A DNA stretch of 64,000 nucleotides from Hyphomicrobiales bacterium (GCA_013911885.1 JACESI010000005.1:150795-214794), one strand, 5' to 3'. Shown: positions 51,568 through 64,000, counted from the stretch's first letter. Program-made: numbers and translations. Notes: generated by a model from the letters alone, not told the origin.

Positions 51568-51716
51568 CCCGTTCCCGCACAGACGATCGGTAAGGCAGGC
51601 GGATTTCACGCCATGCGACACCAAATCGCCGTTTTGAGCGGGCCATGCTCCGCAACAAATACCAACCACGACACAAAGCAGCGCCATTGAAACCGATCTT
51701 CATTCCTTTGCCATTT

Positions 51717-52238
51717 ATGAAAACGGCGATCGCGCTGCCATTTTTCATCATGCTTTTTCTGGCGCTCACACCAAACCGGGCGCAAGCGGAAAAAATCGAG
51801 AATGAGGTCGCCGTTTTCGCCGGTCTCGACAAGATCACCGGGCGCATCATCCGTTTCGATGTGAAGGTGAACGAGACGGTACAATTCGGCGCGCTTCAGG
51901 TGACCCCGAAAGTCTGCTACACACGACCGGCAACGGAAACGCCGCAGACGACAAGCTTCGTCAAGGTGGATGAAGTCACCCTCGAGCGCAAGATTCAGCC
52001 GCTTTTCAATGGCTGGATGTTTGCCGCAAGTCCCGGCCTTCATGCGGTCGAGCATGCAATTTACGACGTCTGGCTTGCGGATTGCAAAACCGCCGAACAG
52101 TTTTCGGCTGAACCGGTAACACCATCGAATGACGCGCTTGGTGGGCGCGGTTTCCGCGAATTCACCCCCGCGCAGGGTATAGAGGCAGACGAGCCTGCCG
52201 CACCACCTGCGCCACTGCCAAATCCTGCCAGAACCTGA
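51717..52238 (+). CDS. DUF2155-type periplasmic protein
   Basis: ORF 51645..52238. The ATG at 51717 gives a signal peptide MKTAIALPFFIMLFLALTPNRAQA. Motifs: LDKITGRIIRFDVKVNETVQFGALQVTPKVCYTRPATE...GWMFAASPGL. The NDUFA12 neighbour is typical for this family. Confidence 0.8.
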   Translation: MKTAIALPFFIMLFLALTPNRAQAEKIENEVAVFAGLDKITGRIIRFDVKVNETVQFGALQVTPKVCYTRPATETPQTTSFVKVDEVTLERKIQPLFNGWMFAASPGLHAVEHAIYDVWLADCKTAEQFSAEPVTPSNDALGGRGFREFTPAQGIEADEPAAPPAPLPNPART

Positions 52239-52260
52239 GAGAACCTGCCAGAACCTGAGA
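52221..52260. repeat. 10-bp periodic tandem repeat (4 units) spanning the DUF2155 stop codon
   Basis: aatcctgcca / gaacctgaga / gaacctgcca / gaacctgaga. Confidence 0.8.
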
Positions 52261-52304
52261 AAGAAGCAGAAGCCGAGGGAAAACCGGCCTGCGGTCGGCG
52301 GGCT

Positions 52305-52976
52305 CTATGCCTTCTGATAGGCGTCGATGATGCCAAGCGCCTCTTTGCCGCTCAGTTCAGGACCGGCGGCATCAAAATCGCCCTTCCTGTCGAGGGCTGT
52401 CTCAAGCAACAGGTGATAGCGATGGCGGCTCACCGCTTCAGCGCCGAATGTTGCGAGGTGGTCGGTGGTGAACTGGGTGTCAAGAAGCGTGAAACCTCCC
52501 TTGATGAGGCGGGCTACAAGATGAACCAGCGCAATCTTCGATGTGTCACGGGCGCTTGAGAACATGCTCTCGCCAAAATAAGCCCCACCGAGATGCACGC
52601 CATAAAGCCCGCCGACAAGCCTGCCATCGTCGAATACTTCAACCGTATGGCAATGACCGTTCTCGTAGAGGGCGCCATAAAGCTCCCTGATCTGGCGGTT
52701 GATCCAAGTTGTTTCGCGGCCGATCTTCGCCCTGGCGCAACCGTCGATCACGGCCTCGAAATTCTGGTTGACGCGGACCTTGTAGGGCGTGTTGCACAAG
52801 GTTTTGCGCAGGCTCCTTGCAACATGAAACGTCGCGAATGGCAGAATGCCGCGCTCTTCTGGCTCGATCCAGAACAGCGTGTTGTCGTCAGCGCTTTCCG
52901 CCATCGGAAAAATGCCGCAGGCATAGGCCTTCAACAGCACGTTCGGTGTGATCTTCATGGCTGCGTTCTTGGTCAA
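52305..52976 (-). CDS. aat: Leucyl/phenylalanyl-tRNA--protein transferase
   Basis: [33 protein letters not shown]...[30 protein letters not shown]. Confidence 0.9.
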
Positions 52977-53003
52977 TACGCCGTCCGCCTCAGCGCGCCG
53001 CGT

Positions 53004-54359
53004 TTAGGCGCGGCTTTCCTTGTCGCCCTCGAGATAATGCTCAAGCCAGTGGATATCATAGTTTCCGTCCTGAATATCTCGCTCCCCCAAGAGATCATGA
53101 AACAGCGGAATTGTTGTCTCGATGCCGTCGATGACAAATTCGTCGAGGGCACGGCGCAACCGCATCAGGCAATCGACCCGATCACGGCCATGAACAATCA
53201 GCTTGCCGATCAGGCTGTCGTAATAGGGCGGAATCTTATACCCCTGATAGACGCCGGAATCGACCCTGACGCCAAAACCGCCCGGTGGATGATACTGCGT
53301 GATCGTGCCGGGTGAGGGCGCGAAAGTGCGTGGATTTTCGGCATTGATCCGGCACTCGATGGCATGGCCCTTGAAGATGACCTGATCCTGCGTCACCGAA
53401 AGCGAGCCGCCTGCGGCAATCCGCAATTGCTCATGAACGAGGTCGATGCCGGTCACAGCCTCGGTCACCGGATGTTCAACCTGAAGGCGCGTGTTCATTT
53501 CAATGAAATAGAATTCGCCATTCTCGTAGAGGAATTCGACCGTACCCGCGCCGGAATAGCCAAGGCTTGCGACGGCATTCGCGCAGATCATGCCGATCCG
53601 TGCGCGCTCATTGTCGTTGAGGGTTGGGGAAAGAGCCTCTTCCCAGACTTTCTGGTGGCGTCGCTGAAGCGAGCAGTCGCGCTCGCCGAGATGGATCGCC
53701 TTGCCCTTGCCGTCGCCGAAGACCTGAATTTCGATATGGCGCGGTGTATTCAGATATTTCTCGAGATAGATCGCATCGTCGCCAAAGGCTGCCTTCGCTT
53801 CGCTTTTTGCCGTTGAAACGGCAGAGGCAAGGTCTTTTTCTGTGCGCGCCACTTTCATGCCACGCCCGCCACCGCCAGAGGCTGCCTTGACAAGCACGGG
53901 ATAACCGATCTGCGATGCAACGCGCTTTGCTTCCGCAATATTGGTGATCGCGCCTTTGGAACCCGGAACCACTGGAATACCGAGTTTTTCCGCCGTGACC
54001 TTGGCCGTGATCTTGTCGCCCATGATCGAAATATGCTCCGCCGACGGGCCGACAAAGGTGACATTATGGGCGGCGAGAATTTCGGCAAAACGCGCGTTTT
54101 CCGACAGAAAGCCGTAACCCGGATGAACGGCATCGGCGCCGGTGATCTCGCAAGCCGCCAGGATTTCAGGAATTTTCAGATAAGAATCGCGCGCCGGAGG
54201 TGGTCCAATGCAAACGCTCTCATCGGCGAGGCGCACATGCATGGCGTTTGCATCCGCAGTCGAATGGGCAGCAACGGTTTTAATGCCGAGTTCCTTACAC
54301 GCCCGCAGGATGCGAAGAGCGATTTCCCCCCGGTTTGCAATCAGAAGTTTTTTAATCAC
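53004..54359 (-). CDS. accC: Acetyl-CoA carboxylase biotin carboxylase subunit
   Basis: ORF 53004..54416. The GTG at 54359 gives (M)IKKLLIANRGEIALRILRACKELGI. ATP-grasp motifs are present throughout. Confidence 0.95.
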   Translation of the reverse strand: MIKKLLIANRGEIALRILRACKELGIKTVAAHSTADANAMHVRLADESVCIGPPPARDSYLKIPEILAACEITGADAVHPGYGFLSENARFAEILAAHNVTFVGPSAEHISIMGDKITAKVTAEKLGIPVVPGSKGAITNIAEAKRVASQIGYPVLVKAASGGGGRGMKVARTEKDLASAVSTAKSEAKAAFGDDAIYLEKYLNTPRHIEIQVFGDGKGKAIHLGERDCSLQRRHQKVWEEALSPTLNDNERARIGMICANAVASLGYSGAGTVEFLYENGEFYFIEMNTRLQVEHPVTEAVTGIDLVHEQLRIAAGGSLSVTQDQVIFKGHAIECRINAENPRTFAPSPGTITQYHPPGGFGVRVDSGVYQGYKIPPYYDSLIGKLIVHGRDRVDCLMRLRRALDEFVIDGIETTIPLFHDLLGERDIQDGNYDIHWLEHYLEGDKESRA

Positions 54360-54369
54360 GCCGTCTGCC

Positions 54370-54852
54370 TTATTCGATAACGATGAGAGGCTCGCCGTAT
54401 TCCACGGGTTGAGCATCGTTGATCAGGATTGCCACAACTTTTCCATCCCGCTCGGCGGGGATCTGGTTCATGGTCTTCATGGCTTCGATGATGAGAACGG
54501 TCTGACCCGTCTTGACGCTGTCGCCAACACTCACGAAAGGCGGCGTGCCCGGTTCCGGCGAGAGATAGGCCGTTCCGACCATGGGTGACTTGAGCGCGTT
54601 CAAATTGCTCGCGGGAGGGGCTGCCAAAGGTGCATCGGCCGGCGCTGCCACAGCCACCGGCGGCTGGTGTTGAACCAAGGGCTGGGGAGCGGCATGAACC
54701 ACGGTCTGGATCGGCGCTGGACTGCGCGAAAGCCGGATACGGAAGGTCTCGTGCTCGATTTCGATTTCGTTGAGATCCGTCTCGGACAGAAGTTTCGCGA
54801 GTTTGCGGATCAAGTGGTGGTCGATTTGATCAGAAGAGGACATGGAATTCAC
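54370..54852 (-). CDS. accB: Acetyl-CoA carboxylase biotin carboxyl carrier protein
   Basis: 160-aa ORF with a Pro/Ala linker and the biotinylation motif IIEAMKTMNQI. Confidence 0.95.
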   Translation of the reverse strand: MNSMSSSDQIDHHLIRKLAKLLSETDLNEIEIEHETFRIRLSRSPAPIQTVVHAAPQPLVQHQPPVAVAAPADAPLAAPPASNLNALKSPMVGTAYLSPEPGTPPFVSVGDSVKTGQTVLIIEAMKTMNQIPAERDGKVVAILINDAQPVEYGEPLIVIE

Positions 54853-54931
54853 TTTTCAAGGGTTGAATGTCTGTCGCGTGCCTATCGAATTCATAAGAAG
54901 TGCTGGCCGGTGCTTCATGCTTTCAACAGAA

Positions 54932-55369
54932 TCATGTGGTGAGGTGATCGCGGATCGCCTGTAGAGCCAAGCTATAGCCAGAAGTTCCAAGGCCCACAAT
55001 AGACCCCTTTGCGACGGGTGCTATATAGGAGTGATGGCGGAAGGTTTCACGGGCATGAATATTGGAGATGTGCACTTCGATCACGTTGCAGCGGCTGCCG
55101 ATGATCGCATCATGCAACGCAATCGACGTATGCGTATAAGCGCCCGGATTGAACACGACCCATGAACCGGTGTGCCCGGCTTCCTGTATCGCGCTCACGA
55201 GTTCGCCTTCATGATTGGACTGCCGGCAGGAAACGGCAAGACCGAGGCGCTGTCCATCACGGATGCATTGCGCCTCGAGATCAGCAAGCGTTACCGATCC
55301 ATATACACCGGGTTCGCGCGTGCCGAGAAGATTGAGATTGGGTCCATTCAGGATCAGGACGTCTTGCAT
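54932..55369 (-). CDS. aroQ: Type II 3-dehydroquinate dehydratase
   Basis: LILNGPNLNLLGTREPGVYG...QSNHEGELV...NPGAYTHTSIALHDA...EVHISNIHARE. Confidence 0.95.
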   Translation of the reverse strand: MQDVLILNGPNLNLLGTREPGVYGSVTLADLEAQCIRDGQRLGLAVSCRQSNHEGELVSAIQEAGHTGSWVVFNPGAYTHTSIALHDAIIGSRCNVIEVHISNIHARETFRHHSYIAPVAKGSIVGLGTSGYSLALQAIRDHLTT

Positions 55370-55515
55370 CGGGTAATTTTACCAGTCGTAGCGGGTTGCA
55401 AGCAACACACGAAAGCCGTTCTTTCAACCATGGCAGGCGGGAAACTCAATGATCTGTTATAAGGCGATCTGCCACAAAATCAAAACGGCGAGGGGGCTTC
55501 TCCCCGGTTTGTCGA

Positions 55516-56340
55516 TCAGGAACAAATGGTCTCGCCACATTTGCGCAGGGCTGCAATTTTCTGACGCAATGATTCCACGCCAACCGCGCCTGGCAGGATC
55601 TCCTTGCCGATGACGAAGGTCGGCGTTCCCGTCAGCCCGAGTTCTGTCGCAATGTCATAGACTTCCTGAATACCATCATTGATGGCGGGATCCTCCAGGG
55701 CCTTTTTGATTTCCTCGACATTGATTTCGAGCCTTGCCGCGATCGAAAGGGCTACGGCCTCATTGACCTGCCCGTTTACCGACAGAAGCGCACGATGGAG
55801 CGCGTGATATTTTTCAGGCGCGGTCTTGAGAACAGCAAGCGCGACCCTCGCCGCTTCCTGCGAACCTTGTCCAAGGACCGGGAATTCCTTGAGGATGACC
55901 CGCAAATCACCGTCATTCTTGATCAATTCATCAATATGCGGCATCGCCTGACGGCAGAAACCGCAATTGTAGTCGAAGAATTCGATAAGGGTGACAGTGC
56001 CTTCGGGATTGCCGATGATGGCGTGGTTGTCGGAGCGCATCAGCACACTGTCTTCGCTCTCGATCAGATTACTGCGCGAGGCCTGCTGCTCGGCGTTACG
56101 GCGGCTATCGAGAATTTCGAGCGCCTCGATGATCACTTCCGGATTTTGCAGAAGATATTGACGTATCATATCCCCGGTCAGCTTTGGGACTGCGAGGTCA
56201 TTCGTTGTTATCTCGACCGGGGACTGGCTGTCCGGTGTTTTCTGATCTGCTGAAGCAGACGGCATGAGACAGGCAATGATGACCAGCGTCATCGAGGCGA
56301 ACGCCAGGGCGTTTCTGCGCAAGTGATAAAAAAGGCGCAT
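55516..56340 (-). CDS. DsbA-family thiol:disulfide oxidoreductase
   Basis: 274-aa ORF with a signal/anchor segment and a thioredoxin-fold CGFC active site (FFDYNCGFCRQAMP). Confidence 0.85.
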   Translation of the reverse strand: MRLFYHLRRNALAFASMTLVIIACLMPSASADQKTPDSQSPVEITTNDLAVPKLTGDMIRQYLLQNPEVIIEALEILDSRRNAEQQASRSNLIESEDSVLMRSDNHAIIGNPEGTVTLIEFFDYNCGFCRQAMPHIDELIKNDGDLRVILKEFPVLGQGSQEAARVALAVLKTAPEKYHALHRALLSVNGQVNEAVALSIAARLEINVEEIKKALEDPAINDGIQEVYDIATELGLTGTPTFVIGKEILPGAVGVESLRQKIAALRKCGETICS

Positions 56341-56400
56341 GAGGATTATCCGTTCGCTTGATATGAAGTGAGTGCATTATTTCTGAAGAGCGTTAAGAAC

Positions 56401-57789
56401 TCACAAATTCGGATTGCGATAGGAAAGAATATCGTCTGCCTGCAACCAGCCGGGTGAACCGCGATCAAATTTTTTCTGAGCCCGCACGGCCTGGACCTTT
56501 GCGCCGGAAATATCGCCGAAATAGAACAAGCCGTTCGCGGTCGCAAGGGTGGCGTCGGCGTCGCGTCCTTCACGGCTATAGGCGATGGCGAGCTGGCGAT
56601 AGGCGATGCCAATGCTCGGATCCCGACTGAGGGCAGAGGTCAGCACGCGGATCGCTTCCTTGTTGTTGGCCTTGTTTTCGCTTGCAACCAGGGCATGGCC
56701 GAGCAGCGTCTGGATCAGCGGCTGCCCGGGCGCGAGAGCAAGGGCTTTTCGCAGCGGTGCGATTGCATTTTGCGGTTGGCCACCATCGAGATAGGCCTGT
56801 CCCTTCAACTCCCAGAAATAAGGATAATCCGGTTTGCGCGCGATCAGGGCATCGATTGCCTTTTGCGCCGTGACGACGCTGCCAACGCGATAGCCGACAA
56901 TGGCTCGGGCATATTCGGCAGGCAAGGAGTCGTCGGACCGGGGATAAAGGCGACCAACCATCTGCGGGAGTTCGGTGAAGGCGGCGAGCTTTGCCTGCAT
57001 CAGGGCGTGGCGCTCGATCAGCGCGGGCGGATCCTTACGATCCTTGAACTTGCTTTTCTCAACAAGGGTTTCGGCAAGCGCAATGCGGTCGCGCGGCAAG
57101 GGATGACTTTGGGCATAGGGATCGATTCTGCTGCTTGCGACCGGCAACTGGTTCTGAAGCGCGCGAAAGGTGGTCAACATGCCGCTTGCCGACTGGCCGG
57201 TTTTTTCAAGAAACGTGATTGCCAGTCTGTCCGCCGCGGTCTCCTCGGTGCGCTGATAGGCAAGAAGGGAGCGCTGGGCAATCGAAGCACCACCCTGTAG
57301 CGCGCCGATACCGCCCTGTGCGGCGGCGGCATTGCCGCTCGCAGCTCCGGCAACCACGGCTGCGCCCGCCAGAATCTGGGAAACGATCGCGATCGTTCGT
57401 GCGCCGGCGACCGCAGAGCGGAGCCGGATAAGATGCCCGCCGGCGAGGTGGCCCGTCTCATGGGCGATAACGCCGATGACCTCGTTCGGTGTTTTTGACT
57501 GCTTCAGGGTTCCGGTGTTGATGAACATGCGCTTGCCATTGGCGACGAAGGCATTGAATTCATCCGAATTAACGAGACTGATATTAATGAATCCGGACTG
57601 AATTCCGGCTGCCTTGAAAATCGGCGCTGAATAATCGCGCAGCAACGCCTCGATTTCAGCATCCCGGACTATTGGCGGTCCACCGCGCTGGGCCGAGGCG
57701 GGCACGGTTGTCGCGCTGAACGCAATGAGGCCGGACAGCAGCGTGGCCGACGCTTTGCGTCGGGCGAGAAGGAGTGCGGATGGTTTCAA
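56401..57789 (-). CDS. M48-family metalloprotease with TPR-like C-terminal domain
   Basis: 462-aa ORF with a signal peptide, a zinc motif IAHETGHLAGGH and a helical repeat C-terminal half. Confidence 0.85.
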   Translation of the reverse strand: MKPSALLLARRKASATLLSGLIAFSATTVPASAQRGGPPIVRDAEIEALLRDYSAPIFKAAGIQSGFINISLVNSDEFNAFVANGKRMFINTGTLKQSKTPNEVIGVIAHETGHLAGGHLIRLRSAVAGARTIAIVSQILAGAAVVAGAASGNAAAAQGGIGALQGGASIAQRSLLAYQRTEETAADRLAITFLEKTGQSASGMLTTFRALQNQLPVASSRIDPYAQSHPLPRDRIALAETLVEKSKFKDRKDPPALIERHALMQAKLAAFTELPQMVGRLYPRSDDSLPAEYARAIVGYRVGSVVTAQKAIDALIARKPDYPYFWELKGQAYLDGGQPQNAIAPLRKALALAPGQPLIQTLLGHALVASENKANNKEAIRVLTSALSRDPSIGIAYRQLAIAYSREGRDADATLATANGLFYFGDISGAKVQAVRAQKKFDRGSPGWLQADDILSYRNPNL

Positions 57790-58007
57790 GTCGACATTCC
57801 GTTTCCGTAAAAGGTCCGGGGTTTTGTCAAGATTGGCATTTCCTCTGACCGAAACGCAATCCTGATCTTATCTCAGCATTCTTTTGCCGTTCAGAAGGGC
57901 ATCATTCGTTTTTGCGGGTTAGAATGGCTGAAATGTGGCTGCTCAAACCTGTAGACTTGGTTATAGCTTCCCGTATCCCACCCACCAAGTGCCTTATCGA
58001 GTGTCTC

Positions 58008-59174
58008 ATGCCCTTTTCTGCCTCAAATCGAAGTGATATCAGCGCCTTTCTTGCCATGGACGTGCTCAGAAATGCGAATCGGGCCGAAGCCGCCGGGCAA
58101 TCCGTGATTCATATGGAAGTTGGCCAGCCGGCAGCGCCCGCGCCGGCAATGGTTCTCAGGGAGGCCGCGCTCTGGCTTGCCAGGGGCCGTCTCGGCTATA
58201 CCGATGCGCTCGGTCTCAAGCCCCTGCGCGAGCGGATTGCGCAGCACTATCAGGATGCGTATGGCGTTCAAATCGACCCTGAACGCGTGGTGGTCACGAC
58301 CGGCTCCTCCGCCGGGTTCATACTTGCTTTTCTCGCCGCTTTCGATATCGGCGACGCCGTCGGCCTGCCAAGTCCCGGTTATCCCGCTTATCGCAATATC
58401 CTGAAAGCGCTTGGGCTGCGGGTGATCGAAATCGAGACGAGGGCGGAAGACCGATGGACCCTGAGCGTCGAGAATTTGCGTCGCGCTCATGAAGCGCACA
58501 CACTCAAGGGCGTTCTGGTTGCAAGCCCCGCCAATCCGAGCGGCACAATGCTGACCCCGCCCGCTCTTCGCGATATCGCGACCTGTTGCGAGGATTGGGG
58601 CATCCGCTTCATTTCAGACGAAATCTATCACGGTCTCGTCTTCAGCGGCGAAGCGCGGACCGCCGCCGCACACAGCGACAGCGCGATCATCATCAATTCT
58701 TTCAGCAAATATTATTGTATGACCGGCTGGCGCATCGGCTGGATGATCCTGCCGCCGGAGCTTCTGCGGCCTGTCGAACGGCTGGCGCAAAATCTCTTCA
58801 TTTCCGCCCCGGAATTGTCGCAGCGCGCGGCGCGCGTTGCCTTCGATGCAAAGGCGGAACTCGAGGAAATCAAGAAAGGCTATGCCCGCAACCGGGATAT
58901 TCTGCTGGCGCGGCTTCCGGCCATGGGTCTTACAGATTTCCTGCCGGTTGACGGCGCGTTTTATGTTTACGTGAATTGTCGGGACTTCACCAATGACACG
59001 CAGGCATTCACCGCGCGGATGCTCACTGAAACCGGCATCGCAGCGACCCCGGGGGCTGATTTTGATCCTCAGAACGGGCACACCTATATCCGCCTCTCAT
59101 TCGCCGGGGCTGAGGCCGATATGATCGAGGCAATGGACCGGCTCGCGCCCTGGCTTCATCGACAATGCGTCTGA
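58008..59174 (+). CDS. Pyridoxal phosphate-dependent aminotransferase (class I/II)
   Basis: ORF 57912..59174 is trimmed to the ATG at 58008 (MPFSASNRSDISAFLAMDVL). Motifs: GYPAYRNIL, SPANPSG, NSFSKYYCMTGWRIGW (PLP lysine), IRLSFA. Confidence 0.85.
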   Translation: MPFSASNRSDISAFLAMDVLRNANRAEAAGQSVIHMEVGQPAAPAPAMVLREAALWLARGRLGYTDALGLKPLRERIAQHYQDAYGVQIDPERVVVTTGSSAGFILAFLAAFDIGDAVGLPSPGYPAYRNILKALGLRVIEIETRAEDRWTLSVENLRRAHEAHTLKGVLVASPANPSGTMLTPPALRDIATCCEDWGIRFISDEIYHGLVFSGEARTAAAHSDSAIIINSFSKYYCMTGWRIGWMILPPELLRPVERLAQNLFISAPELSQRAARVAFDAKAELEEIKKGYARNRDILLARLPAMGLTDFLPVDGAFYVYVNCRDFTNDTQAFTARMLTETGIAATPGADFDPQNGHTYIRLSFAGAEADMIEAMDRLAPWLHRQCV

Positions 59175-59182
59175 AACACAAA

Positions 59183-59209
59183 ACCCCGGGCAGAACCCGG
59201 GGTTTTTTT
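59183..59209. terminator. Bidirectional Rho-independent terminator between the aminotransferase gene and rne
   Basis: AAAACCCCGGG-caga-ACCCGGGGTTTTTTT. Confidence 0.8.
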
Positions 59210-59290
59210 ACTTGTTTGACAAGATCTGCAAGGCAGCGACACAAAGCTTGGCGTCAGGTTTTCCCGCTGCCGAGCGCGGCACTCAATCCC

Positions 59291-59623
59291 TCAAAAGAAC
59301 GTCCTGCGCTGCCACCAGCCGACCCGTCCGGATTTCGCATCCTTTGCCTCCATATTCTCAGGCTTGTCTGCTGCGACTACGGCCTGCGAGGAGTTTTCGG
59401 CTTCGGGAGCGACTTCTTCCGGGATGGCTTCCGGTTCTGCTGCCTTGGTCGTTTGTGCGGCTTTTTTCACTTTCGCCGCTTCGGCTCTTGCTGCTTTCGC
59501 AGCCTCGGCTTTTTCTGCTTTGGCTTTTGCGGCTTCCGCTTTTAGTTTTGCGGCTTCCGCTTTGGCAGCCACAGCCGCGGCTGTCTTTTCTGCTTTTGCC
59601 GCGGCGCGCCCGGCGGCGGCAAT
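59291..59623 (-). pseudogene. rne: Detached C-terminal tail of RNase E (same frame, downstream of the TAG), carrying the GWW motif
   Basis: The same reading frame continues straight after the TAG at 59624-59626: IAAAGRAAAKAEKTAAAVAAKAEAAKLKAEAAKAKAEKAEAAK...KDAKSGRVGWWQRRTFF-stop. The ORF track lists it as 59291..59572 from an internal GTG. Confidence 0.75.
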
Positions 59624-62098
59624 CTACCGCTTCGTGGGCGCTGCGACCGGCTCGTTTTCCTGCGGCAATTCGAATGCGGGCGCTGTGTCCGCAGCCGCCG
59701 CATCAGGTCCTGCTGCGGCTTCCGCCACTTCAATAGCGGTCGGCTGATCAACGGTGTCGCTCTGCGATTCCTCGCTCACGGCATCCTCGCTCGCGGCATT
59801 GCCAACCAGCACTTCGCCATTGCGTTCCCGCTCACGACGGCCACCACGCCGGCCACGCCGACGGCGTTTGCGCTTTGGCGCTTCACCGCCATTTTCGCTG
59901 GCTTCAACCTCCGGCTTCGTTTCGCCGGGCTCGTCATCGGCGGCGATGTTGTCATCCTCAGCGGCAGCTTCGGGTTCCGATCCGCCACGCCGACGGCGGC
60001 GGCGCTTGCGCGTCACGCCATCGCTGGTTGCGTCTTCACGTTCATTGCCGCCTCGGGCATTTCCGGCTTTGGCACTTGCCACATTGTCATTGCCGGATTC
60101 GCCATGTTCATCCGATTCGATCAGTTTGCGTTCTTCCGCTTCGGCTGCTGCATCAAGCTCCGCATCGCGGGCAAGCTGCATGTCGATATCACCGGATCCG
60201 GACGCAACGACCGCCACATTGCGCGGTGTTTCGGATTTCTCGCCACGGGTGATCACGCAATATTCCCCGAGAATGCTGTCATCGGCCTCAATGCGGATCG
60301 TCAGGCCGTAGCGGCTTTCAAGTTCCGAAAGATGAGCGCGCTTGTGGTTCAGCACATAAAGCGCGACATCGGTCTTGGTGCGCGCGATCAGATGATGGCT
60401 TGAACTGACATTAAGCTGATCTTCTATTGCTCTGAGAACATAAAGCGCGATCGAGGCGGGCGCGCGAATGGCGCCGGTTCCTTCGCAATGCGGGCAGGGC
60501 GTCATGGTGCTTTCAAGAACGCCGGCACGCAGACGCTGGCGCGACATTTCAAGAAGGCCGAAATGCGAGATGCGCCCGACCTGGATGCGCGCGCGATCAT
60601 CCTTGAGGCATTCCTTGAGCTTGCGTTCGACCGCGCGGTTGTTGCGGTTCTCCTCCATGTCGATGAAGTCAATCACAATCAGACCAGCAAGGTCGCGCAG
60701 TCGCAATTGCCGTGCGACTTCCTCAGCGGTCTCCAGATTGGTGCTGAGCGCGGTGTCCTCGATCGAGCTTTCGCGCGTTGAGCGGCCGGAGTTGACGTCG
60801 ATCGAGACGAGCGCCTCGGTCTGATTGATGACGATATAACCGCCGGATTTCAGCGTGACGCGCGGCGAGAACATGGCATCAAGCTGGGTTTCCACGCCGT
60901 ATTTCGCAAAAACCGGCTGCATATCCTTGTAGGGCTGAACATTCTTGGCATGGCTCGGCATCAGCATGCGCATGAAGTCCTTGGCCTCGCGATAGGCCTC
61001 GTCGCCCGCGACCAGAACCTGATCGATATCCTTGTTGTAGAGATCACGGATCGAGCGCTTGAGCAGGCTTCCCTCTTCGTAGACGAGAGAGGGCGCGGAT
61101 GATTTCAATGTCAGATCGCGGACATTTTCCCAAAGCCGCATCAAATATTCGAAATCGCGCTTGATTTCGGTCTTGGTGCGGCTCATGCCCGCGGTACGCA
61201 GGATGACTCCCATGCCCTCGGCGACATCAAGATCTTCGGCAATGCTGCGCAGGCGCTTGCGATCGGCCTGGCTGGTGATTTTGCGCGAAATGCCGCCGCC
61301 ACGATCGGTGTTCGGCATAAGCACGGCATAGCGACCGGCAAGGGAGAGATAGGTCGTCAGCGCCGCCCCTTTGTTGCCGCGTTCTTCCTTGACCACCTGA
61401 ACCAGAATGATCTGGCGGCGCTTGATAACTTCCTGAATCTTGTATTGCTTGGCACGCGTACGGACACGGCGCTCCGGAACTTCTTCCATAGCGTCCTCGG
61501 AGCCGACCGATTCGACCTTGTCCTCTTCGCGCACTTCTTCCTGATCATCGTCGTGGCCATCATCATCGCCATCAACATCCGAATTGCCGCCCGAATTGAC
61601 ATCGACATGGCGCTTGGTGTCAGCGCTATCGCGTTCTTCGACGTCGGCTTCGGCGTCTGGTCGGGCGGCATCGCCATTCTGCTCGACGATATCGGATTGA
61701 ACCGCGTCATCCGCCTTGGCGGCTGCGGCTTTCGCGGATGGGCGCCGGCGTCGCGAGCGCTTTCTCGCCGGTTCGGCCGGTTCATCATCGTCCCGGTCTG
61801 ATTCCTTGTGGGCCGCCGCCTCTTCATCAAGCAGCGCCTGTCGGTCTGCTACAGGGATCTGATAATAATCCGGATGAATCTCGGAGAAGGCGAGAAAGCC
61901 GTGGCGGTTGCCGCCATAATCGACGAAAGCCGCCTGTAGCGACGGCTCGACCCGGGTTACCTTGGCAAGGTAGATATTGCCCTTTAGCTGTTTGCGGTTG
62001 GCTGCCTCGAAGTCAAATTCTTCGACACGGTTTCCGCGCACCACGACAACCCGGGTTTCCTCCGGGTGGGTGGCATCGATAAGCATCTTGTTATCCAT
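59624..62098 (-). CDS. rne: Ribonuclease E (reading frame up to an in-frame TAG)
   Basis: 824-aa ORF: MLIDATHPEETRVVVVRGNRVEEFDFE, an S1 domain, a catalytic core (VLMPNTDRGGGISRKI..., DFIDMEE, CPHCEGTG zinc link), then an Arg/acidic-rich scaffold. It ends ...EPVAAPTKR-TAG. Confidence 0.9.
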   Translation of the reverse strand: MDNKMLIDATHPEETRVVVVRGNRVEEFDFEAANRKQLKGNIYLAKVTRVEPSLQAAFVDYGGNRHGFLAFSEIHPDYYQIPVADRQALLDEEAAAHKESDRDDDEPAEPARKRSRRRRPSAKAAAAKADDAVQSDIVEQNGDAARPDAEADVEERDSADTKRHVDVNSGGNSDVDGDDDGHDDDQEEVREEDKVESVGSEDAMEEVPERRVRTRAKQYKIQEVIKRRQIILVQVVKEERGNKGAALTTYLSLAGRYAVLMPNTDRGGGISRKITSQADRKRLRSIAEDLDVAEGMGVILRTAGMSRTKTEIKRDFEYLMRLWENVRDLTLKSSAPSLVYEEGSLLKRSIRDLYNKDIDQVLVAGDEAYREAKDFMRMLMPSHAKNVQPYKDMQPVFAKYGVETQLDAMFSPRVTLKSGGYIVINQTEALVSIDVNSGRSTRESSIEDTALSTNLETAEEVARQLRLRDLAGLIVIDFIDMEENRNNRAVERKLKECLKDDRARIQVGRISHFGLLEMSRQRLRAGVLESTMTPCPHCEGTGAIRAPASIALYVLRAIEDQLNVSSSHHLIARTKTDVALYVLNHKRAHLSELESRYGLTIRIEADDSILGEYCVITRGEKSETPRNVAVVASGSGDIDMQLARDAELDAAAEAEERKLIESDEHGESGNDNVASAKAGNARGGNEREDATSDGVTRKRRRRRRGGSEPEAAAEDDNIAADDEPGETKPEVEASENGGEAPKRKRRRRGRRGGRRERERNGEVLVGNAASEDAVSEESQSDTVDQPTAIEVAEAAAGPDAAAADTAPAFELPQENEPVAAPTKR

Positions 62099-62858
62099 AG
62101 AGTTTGGTCTCCACGATCATCAGACAAGATCGACCGGCCCGATGCCCTTTCAGGCAGCGGAAAATGCGATAACGCGGCTATTCTTGCAAGGAGATCGGTT
62201 GGGTGAAAGGCCATGGCGACGGCGACGAAATCCTGTCTCAGGGCGATTCTTGCAGTGAGAACACTGAAAAGACCAAGTGCCGCAACGATTGATGCAACAT
62301 CGGTTGCAAAAATCGGAAAGAAAGATACGAGCGCGTCGTTTGGCAAAATAAAACCTGTTGGGACTTTACGTCCCGTTGTGTAGCTTTCGGCGGAACGAAG
62401 CCGCCTGTTATGACAGGGATTTTCGGGGGTGTCTCCAAGTCGGACCGGTTAAATCGATAAGGAAATACCGATCTGATAAACGGCCTTTAGCGGCTCCACG
62501 GAGATCTGGTTATCTGGCCCAATAACGAAACGATCTACGGACAGTCCCTGCCAATTAAGGAACAATACTGCCTAAACAATTCTGTCCCGAAAGGCAGGCG
62601 GAAACATGACTTTCAATATGCCGTGCCACCGCGAAAAGGGTCCGCTCGTCTTCGTTAAAAGGCCGACGCCAAACAACGCCGAAAATTTGTCAATTTCATT
62701 CTTATGTCTGAATCTGAATTTATTCAAGTGATAGACTTGCATTCTGCCCGATTGGGCATGATGCGAACCATTGAGCGAGCCTTGTTGCGAAATTGTGGTG
62801 CGTGGCTGAGGTTTTTGCCAGGGACGCAGGGCTACAATCCGGCGTATTCTTTCGATAT

Positions 62859-64000
62859 ATGACCATGATGGCGAATCGTTCTTTCTTCCCTATTCTTCGA
62901 TCCGGTGTCTTCTTGATTGCCTTGCTCCTCTTCGCATCCGGGAGAACAATAGTGAATGAGGCAAGGGCTGTATCACAGGATGTTGTGAAGAATGGCCCCC
63001 AAAGCCCGCAATCGCCAGCGACCAATACCGTCCTCGATGAGGCTCAGCCTGCGCCTGAACCACCGACCAGACTTCCGGGCAAGGTTTTTCCCGAAGTCAC
63101 CGGGATTCATGTCGTTGGGACAGAAACCATGGTGCGTCTGGTACTGGATGTGACCGGCAAGGTTGAACCGACATCGTTCCTCCTCGGTGCACCCCACCGC
63201 ATCGTGATCGATCTTGCCGACACGGCGCTCGCCCTACAGAATGATCGCGGCAATGGCGCGCCCGGTTTCATCAAGTCCATGCGTTACGGCACCACCAGCG
63301 AAGGCGGACTGCGTTTCATCATCGAGACAGACGGACCGATCATTCTTGAGCGCAGCTTCTCCGTCCCGGCGAACGGCGGGGAAGGCGCGCGTGTTGTCTT
63401 CGATATACAAAAGAGCGATGAGCGCGCCTTCCGTATCGCCATTGCGCGGCAGGCGGAAGAGGAAAGGCTGCGCGCTGAAGCAGCAAACAAGCCCGCCGCA
63501 AAAGCCGATATTGCTATCGCCCCGCGCAGGAAACGGATCGTCATCGACCCCGGTCATGGCGGCAAGGATGGCGGCGCCAAAACCAAGGATGGACGCGAGG
63601 AAAAAGAGCTTGTCCTCGATTTTTCACTCGATCTTGCCGGTGTGCTCGGACGAAGCGGGAAATATGATGTCATTTTGACCCGCTCGGATGATCGCTTCGT
63701 CCCGCTTGCCGAGCGGGTGCGCCTTGCACAGACCGCGCGGGCTGATCTGTTCATCTCGATCCATGCCGATTCCCTGCCTGAGGATCGGCGGGTGCGCGGG
63801 ACCGCGGTCTATACGATCTCCGAACATGCCTCCGATGCCATGGCCGCCCGTCTGGCGCAGCAGCAGAACCAGGTTGATTCCGTCGCTGGTATCGAACTCA
63901 AGAACGCTCCGGATGTGGTGGTCGACATCCTGTTCGATCTCACCCGGCGCGAGCAGAGCAATCTGTCGATCCTTTTCGCGCGGCATTTTTATGAATCACT
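62859..64000 (+). CDS. amiC: N-acetylmuramoyl-L-alanine amidase (AmiC-like, AMIN domain), 3'-partial at the window edge
   Basis: It is absent from the ORF track because it runs off the window. My own translation from the ATG at 62859 has no stop. It gives a signal/anchor segment, an AMIN-like region (GIHVVGTETMVRLVLDVTGKVEP...HRIVIDL) and a catalytic domain (IVIDPGHGGKDGGA...RADLFISIHADS). Confidence 0.85.
   Translation, partial: MTMMANRSFFPILRSGVFLIALLLFASGRTIVNEARAVSQDVVKNGPQSPQSPATNTVLDEAQPAPEPPTRLPGKVFPEVTGIHVVGTETMVRLVLDVTGKVEPTSFLLGAPHRIVIDLADTALALQNDRGNGAPGFIKSMRYGTTSEGGLRFIIETDGPIILERSFSVPANGGEGARVVFDIQKSDERAFRIAIARQAEEERLRAEAANKPAAKADIAIAPRRKRIVIDPGHGGKDGGAKTKDGREEKELVLDFSLDLAGVLGRSGKYDVILTRSDDRFVPLAERVRLAQTARADLFISIHADSLPEDRRVRGTAVYTISEHASDAMAARLAQQQNQVDSVAGIELKNAPDVVVDILFDLTRREQSNLSILFARHFYES

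Follow-up and report, generated by a model that had tools for sequence, protein, structure and literature searches.

A probable recent nonsense mutation in rne that detaches the GWW-containing C-terminus of RNase E in an uncultured Hyphomicrobiales bacterium

In Caulobacter crescentus, the extreme C-terminus of RNase E carries a GWW peptide that binds a hydrophobic pocket on the PNPase core, and mutation of either tryptophan disrupts the binding (Hardwick et al., 2012, PMC3376730; PDB 4AID/4AIM). When the GWW peptide is deleted on the Caulobacter chromosome, PNPase is gone from RNase E pull-downs, RhlB and aconitase stay bound, and such a strain proved possible to build and to grow (PMC3376730). 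In vitro, free GWW peptide drives PNPase out of RNase E condensates, and the same paper reports that decay intermediates build up in vivo when PNPase recruitment is lost (PMC10412687). Here, we analyze a 64,000-nt stretch of a metagenome scaffold from an uncultured alphaproteobacterium, a Hyphomicrobiales bacterium (GCA_013911885.1 JACESI010000005.1:150795-214794; called "the window" below, with all positions counted from its first letter), in which the RNase E gene, rne, is interrupted by an in-frame amber codon and the GWW motif lies in the same frame on the far side of it. The evidence presented below points to a likely genuine and very recent CAG-to-TAG nonsense allele that would disconnect PNPase from RNase E.

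The gene is read on the minus strand, and the features that matter for the argument are the following:

62098..59627, minus strand: truncated rne coding sequence, 824 aa (from the ORF list and Pfam domains)
59626-59624, minus strand: premature amber codon TAG, codon 825 (CTA on the plus strand)
59623..59294, minus strand: detached 110-codon tail in the same frame as rne, passing from an Ala/Lys/Glu-rich segment through an acidic linker to the GWW motif
59320..59294, minus strand: GWWQRRTFF, the PNPase-recognition microdomain of alphaproteobacterial RNase E, a C-terminal motif of the family
59293-59291, minus strand: original rne stop TGA, preceded by ...SGRVGWWQRRTFF

Starting at ATG 62098, the open reading frame closes at codon 824 with ...ENEPVAAPTKR and runs into the TAG, the T of which is the plus-strand A at 59626. 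This is the anatomy described in an earlier note made on this DNA, the coordinates of which hold; the roughly 110 stop-free codons that it saw beyond the TAG are exactly 110 (IAAAGRAAAKAEKTAAAVAAKAEAAKLKAEAAKAKAEKAEAAK...DAKSGRVGWWQRRTFF), followed by the TGA. The 824-aa product, which is on record once (ENA ERZ23491067, HARO18-1_SAMN15220988_METAG-scaffold_7, 223,929 bp, by exact-sequence look-up), is a member of the RNase E/G family with complete catalytic and small domains (PF10150 RNase_E_G, E = 4.6e-102, profile positions 1-269 of 270; PF20833 RNase_E_G_Thio, the thioredoxin-like small domain, E = 7.6e-26, positions 1-85 of 86) and an N-terminal S1 domain that is split, with a partial Pfam match at residues 39-81. 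It keeps most of the disordered Arg-rich/acidic C-terminal region, including the Arg-rich segments. It is orthologous to Hyphomicrobiales rne, with 60-84% identity and with gene neighbors that match those of a close relative (L081). Beyond the TAG, a GWW core with basic residues stands within the last ~15 residues of the frame, as is characteristic of the microdomain, but with the TAG intervening it is not a covalent part of the RNase E polypeptide. An open stretch of 110 codons after a stop has P ~0.017 at the local base composition, and since, in addition, this one ends in a conserved C-terminal motif, the tail goes beyond what chance would give. Its GWW is the sole C-terminal GWW in the six frames of the window, and a six-frame scan for a second GWW-bearing ORF elsewhere in the window found none.

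To place codon 825 in an evolutionary context, relatives were gathered by exact-sequence cluster look-up together with a full-length protein query. At 90% identity, the 824-aa protein clusters with a single further protein (P0002, 936 aa, Logan contig SRR26831658_7484), which reads ...ENEPVATPTKRQIVAAERAAAKAEKT... (...PTKRQIVAAER...) uninterrupted through to ...SGRVGWWQRRTFF and the GWWQRRTFF end. In the codon alignment with L081, codon 825 is TAG in the window and CAG (Gln) in the relative, the result of a single coding-strand C-to-T transition at 59626; as the earlier note had it, one nonsense codon is the only lesion, and it is a point substitution. The two rne genes differ by 37 substitutions and one in-frame 3-nt indel over 2.8 kb, and the comparison over 12.6 kb of collinear, shared gene order counts 251 substitutions but just 2 internal indels, of which one is intergenic and the other in frame; from this, the window strain and the relative are estimated to be ~98% identical, with frameshift-type errors apparent in neither assembly. 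The tail itself is collinear with residues 827-936 of P0002, from which it differs by 5 synonymous and 3 non-synonymous changes, without an indel and with the GWW motif intact; with 8 differences only, a dN/dS test for relaxed selection on the tail is powerless. Because the ~98%-identical relative reads straight through, the detached tail is, by this comparison, the authentic C-terminus of RNase E.

The wider family gives the same picture. GWW is found within the last 40 residues in 70 of 73 complete RNase E ORFs from 80 related Hyphomicrobiales genomes, in agreement with the earlier note's statement, backed also by the Caulobacter work (PMC3376730), that alphaproteobacterial RNase E generally ends in a GWW that docks PNPase. 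Among the nearest homologues, 18 of 21 end in GWWQRRxFF, and the exceptions (P0003, P0004, and P0023) end abnormally. An alignment of these 18, in all of which the GWW motif is invariant, shows that only the last ~10 residues are conserved and that the region around codon 825 is a variable linker. The nearest named RNase E proteins come from Hyphomicrobiales metagenome-assembled genomes (MAGs) and then from Roseibium and Stappia, at ~70% identity; over the catalytic half of RNase E, nothing in a scan of genome contigs exceeded ~72% identity, the species lacking a representative genome in that set, and in JGI metagenome contigs neither a 30-nt pattern across the stop (N at variable bases) nor a protein scan with the C-terminal 176 aa found a match, i.e., no further close relatives there. 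With CAG in the closest relative and GWW ends in 70 of 73 genes and 18 of 21 homologues, the sense codon and the uninterrupted tail are, on comparative grounds, ancestral, and the TAG is derived, a transition confined to the window's lineage. The earlier note had proposed an alignment of orthologues at the TAG and had taken a sense codon in closely related genomes as a refutation of its interpretation. The closest relative does carry CAG and ends in GWWQRRTFF; a recent truncation is still the favored explanation, but as a strain-private mutation and not as a feature of the lineage that rewires the degradosome, since a genome this closely related has the sense codon.

The other differences between the window and L081 within rne include the following. 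At 59679-59685 (codons 805-807), there are 5 substitutions in 7 nt (ACAGCGCCC in the window, ATGCCGATC in L081; Thr-Ala-Pro vs Met-Pro-Ile), a cluster in the variable linker ~55 nt upstream of the TAG that looks like a multi-nucleotide event rather than independent point changes. At 61568 (codon ~177), a 3-nt (GAT) in-frame indel changes a poly-Asp tract (GDDDGHDDD vs GDDDDGHDDD); the tract is located within an acidic insertion that separates the S1 match (39-81) from the catalytic-domain match, which begins at residue 252.

A second assembly also has the TAG. Exact-sequence searches with the flanking aminotransferase, AroQ, and AccB proteins returned only the source scaffold and Logan contig SRR12009694_1217700 (8378 bp), which corresponds to window positions 53548-61925 with 1 mismatch, at 56055; the contig carries CTA/TAG at 59624-59626, and its rne gene call stops at the identical base. 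Because this assembly comes from a different pipeline, an assembler-specific consensus error is unlikely. Over these 8378 nt, the mismatch at 56055 is all that distinguishes the SRR12009694 contig from the ENA scaffold. It falls in a DsbA/ScsC-like gene (55516-56340, minus strand), where it changes Glu96 to Lys, and probably reflects a polymorphism within the population that the two assemblers resolved differently.

It may still be asked whether the organism truly has CAG, the T being a read-level or consensus error in the metagenome assembly, as one of the earlier note's explanations, a base-call error, would have it. Such an error would fit with the origin of the window as a third-party metagenome scaffold (ENA ERZ23491067), with the CAG in the sister strain, with a tail that shows no decay, and with the detached GWW tails seen in other public assemblies (in another frame in L012 and L060; P0004 and P0023 lack the GWW). 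However, the base recurs in the second assembly, with just 1 of 8378 positions differing, there is no frameshift or homopolymer-type error relative to the sister strain over 12.6 kb, and the other detached tails are frameshifts, a typical class of error, whereas the rne TAG is a clean transition. Taken together, these observations make an artefact unlikely, and less likely than a recent truncation. In the two public cases with an intact GWW segment (L012 5461-5670, a Microflora Danica MAG, and L060 5326-5770, Nitratireductor aquibiodomus NL21), there is an early stop and the segment follows downstream in another frame, ending ...GWWNRRSSFF or ...GWWQRKSFF; the GWW losses in L012/L060 and P0004/P0023 may be frameshift errors in low-complexity sequence.

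It should be noted that some considerations weigh against a genuine nonsense allele. The allele is known as the assembled consensus of two assemblies, and both may share one read set, in which case an assembler artefact would be excluded but a systematic read error or a mixed C/T population would be possible. At close range, the comparison rests on one sister strain. Finally, the long-term conservation of GWW implies that the truncation is deleterious, which lowers the prior for its fixation in a healthy population. We nevertheless regard a genuine CAG-to-TAG allele as the likely reading, and infer that the reads would show TAG as the dominant allele.

The tail contains one further element that bears on how the stop arose:

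59525..59563, minus strand: two exact 18-nt copies, 21 nt apart, an in-frame, heptad-like coding repeat (KAEAAKL/KAEAAKA)

The 18-mer, TTTTGCGGCTTCCGCTTT, occurs exactly twice (59525-59542 and 59546-59563), where no such repeat is expected by chance. The earlier note had seen these repeats and considered a local rearrangement plausible; the repeats are indeed there, in two exact copies near the stop, as rearrangement or repeat-mediated slippage between them would call for. However, their position is 61-101 nt past the TAG, they keep the reading frame, and the uninterrupted relative has them in identical form; the window and L081 show zero differences from 59501 to 59606, and the lesion is a point substitution with no indel. 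Repeat-mediated rearrangement as the cause of the rne disruption is thus ruled out by the codon alignment with L081, and we give it practically no weight. More generally, the tail is Ala/Lys/Glu-rich at 59458-59563 (tail codons ~21-55), with 21-24-nt periodic repeats (families D1-D3) of a 7-8-residue period that are lineage-specific; the nearest relatives carry a conserved KKLTPAEKRAATIAKKKAA segment roughly where the window has the Ala/Lys/Glu repeats.

An intact frame downstream of a stop also raises the question of functional readthrough, i.e., whether the UAG could be suppressed by a suppressor tRNA or by near-cognate tRNA-Gln, so that useful full-length RNase E is made. The downstream frame is fully intact, and bacterial near-cognate tRNAs that decode UAG mostly bring in Gln, by which the ancestral residue would be restored. 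Against this, at least three other genes have a TAG at their normal end (the H+-PPase gene, with the profile matched to position 645 of 645, and the class II RNR and aat genes, as judged from Pfam), the window encodes four tRNAs (Arg-TCT, Leu-TAG, Val-TAC, and Asp-GTC), all with anticodons other than CUA, basal readthrough is typically well below 1%, and a stop that is CAG in the relative does not behave as a programmed recoding site. Functional readthrough is, in our estimate, very improbable. Two related candidates were rejected: programmed recoding, on the unconserved stop, the CAG in the relative, and the uninterrupted ORFs of the other relatives; and reassignment of TAG, on its use as an ordinary stop for H+-PPase, RNR, and aat. 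A superficially similar arrangement is seen at 51609-54422 (minus strand), where accC, aat, and a 232-codon open frame without a Pfam match follow one another in one reading frame with single stops between them (TAA, then TAG). Since accC and aat are distinct, complete genes, the pattern appears coincidental and does not seem to reflect further nonsense lesions; in the region of the 232-codon frame, the gene calls are DUF2155 and NDUFA12, both on the other strand.

A third fate for the tail, proposed in the earlier note, is separate expression from GTG 59572, the first in-frame GTG of the tail. In such a split gene, the tail would be translated alone from this or another internal start, and the free GWW peptide would bind or compete for PNPase. 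In favor of this, a 93-codon ORF with a GTG start is present, and free GWW peptide displaces PNPase in vitro (PMC10412687). The three in-frame starts, however, lack Shine-Dalgarno pairing: GTG 59572, GTG 59470, and ATG 59353 reach -0.9, -2.1, and -1.5 kcal/mol, to be compared with -6.4 kcal/mol for the rne start and a background mean of -2.6 kcal/mol. Moreover, ATG 59353 is ACG in the relative, the arrangement is conserved in no relative, there is no promoter-like site in 58900-59900, the gene caller called no ORF there, and the 93-aa product is absent from the protein collection. The tail thus has neither the start with a ribosome-binding site nor the conserved split that would mark an independent small ORF. 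With no ribosome-binding site at GTG 59572, separate expression from it finds no backing, and we hold a split gene to be highly improbable.

The rne message itself appears to include the tail. A single structure in the terminator scan is relevant here:

59180..59206, between the convergent rne and aminotransferase genes: A-tract, 12-bp GC-rich hairpin, and T-tract (terminator scan and minus-strand RNA fold)

Located ~85 nt past the TGA, this element folds in the minus-strand RNA as AAAACCCCGGGU-UCU-GCCCGGGGUUUU, followed by GUGUUU, and resembles a bidirectional intrinsic terminator. From the TAG to the TGA, the scan gave no terminator-like site on the rne strand; its five other matches in 58900-59900 all fall on the opposite one. 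Because the terminator-like hairpin comes after the TGA and none is found on the rne strand before it, the rne mRNA appears still to contain the tail. At the other end of the gene, ~850 nt (62099-62951) separate the rne start from a divergent AMIN/amidase gene, leaving room for a structured rne 5' leader; this interval shows neither a convincing ORF nor a match to Rfam, none of the curated families of rne leaders fits, and around rne nothing in Rfam is credible at the gathering or E-value threshold.

The sequence of events that best accommodates these observations would start with one C-to-T transition that turned codon 825 of rne from CAG (Gln) into TAG in the sampled population. Translation would then stop 111 codons early, leaving the catalytic N-terminal half and most of the disordered scaffold in place; lost would be the Ala/Lys/Glu-rich segment and the extreme C-terminal GWWQRRTFF peptide that binds PNPase in alphaproteobacteria. 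The 333 nt past the TAG would now form an untranslated end of the rne mRNA, running to the original hairpin, and the tail would be intact only for lack of time to decay. By analogy with Caulobacter, PNPase would no longer be recruited to RNase E or its condensates while the other partners stay bound, and cells would be viable and clear decay intermediates less well; the allele would, in other words, yield a viable, PNPase-uncoupled RNase E. The window itself does not include pnp. That the event is very recent follows from the undecayed tail and from the lack of the stop in a strain that differs by 2%, and the allele is probably a mildly deleterious variant rather than a stable lineage trait. 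There is a slim chance that it is adaptive instead, a PNPase-uncoupled RNase E dominating because release of PNPase from the degradosome or condensates pays in this habitat, with reinitiation or Gln readthrough maybe supplying small amounts of the tail, which would act as a tunable competitor or bring partial rescue; the sole observation in favor of this is that the allele is the assembled consensus in two assemblies.

For annotation purposes, the gene should be described either as rne carrying a premature stop or as an RNase E with a truncated C-terminus, and the 333 nt downstream as its own C-terminal remnant and not as a separate gene. If reads confirm the allele, it would represent a natural counterpart of the Caulobacter GWW-deletion strain and would show that a wild Hyphomicrobiales population can carry a loss of PNPase docking, at least for a short time. 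Among public RNase E gene calls, a few percent seem to have lost GWW (here 3 of 73 and 3 of 21), probably for the most part as artefacts, and surveys of degradosome composition should check downstream frames before scoring GWW as lost.

Compared with the Caulobacter peptide (PMC3376730; PDB 4AID/4AIM), the motif in the window has the same GWW core with basic residues at the end of the frame (GRVGWWQRRTFF here, KPRRGWWRR in Caulobacter) and belongs to a motif conserved across alphaproteobacterial RNase E; it differs in being cut off by an upstream amber codon and in its flanks, which have a Q and a TFF extension typical of Hyphomicrobiales. The closest functional parallel is the engineered Caulobacter GWW deletion (PMC3376730): as in that strain, the RNase E predicted from the window keeps the catalytic domain and the sites for other partners and lacks the PNPase site, but the allele is natural, removes 111 residues instead of ~10, and is found in an uncultured Hyphomicrobiales bacterium. 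The frameshifted rne tails of L012 and L060 are similar in that the ORF ends early with an intact GWW-ending segment downstream; there, however, the frame changes in a low-complexity region and may do so artefactually, in contrast to an in-frame point substitution found in two assemblies. In E. coli, rne alleles of the rne131 type are nonsense or frameshift truncations that delete the scaffold, keep the essential catalytic half, and are viable. The window's allele resembles them in leaving this half untouched and differs from them in that the E. coli alleles remove the whole scaffold; moreover, PNPase binding in E. coli uses a different, non-GWW microdomain. Next to these systems, the window contributes a lesion of a known kind in a gene that is well understood, new as a natural example but not as a system.

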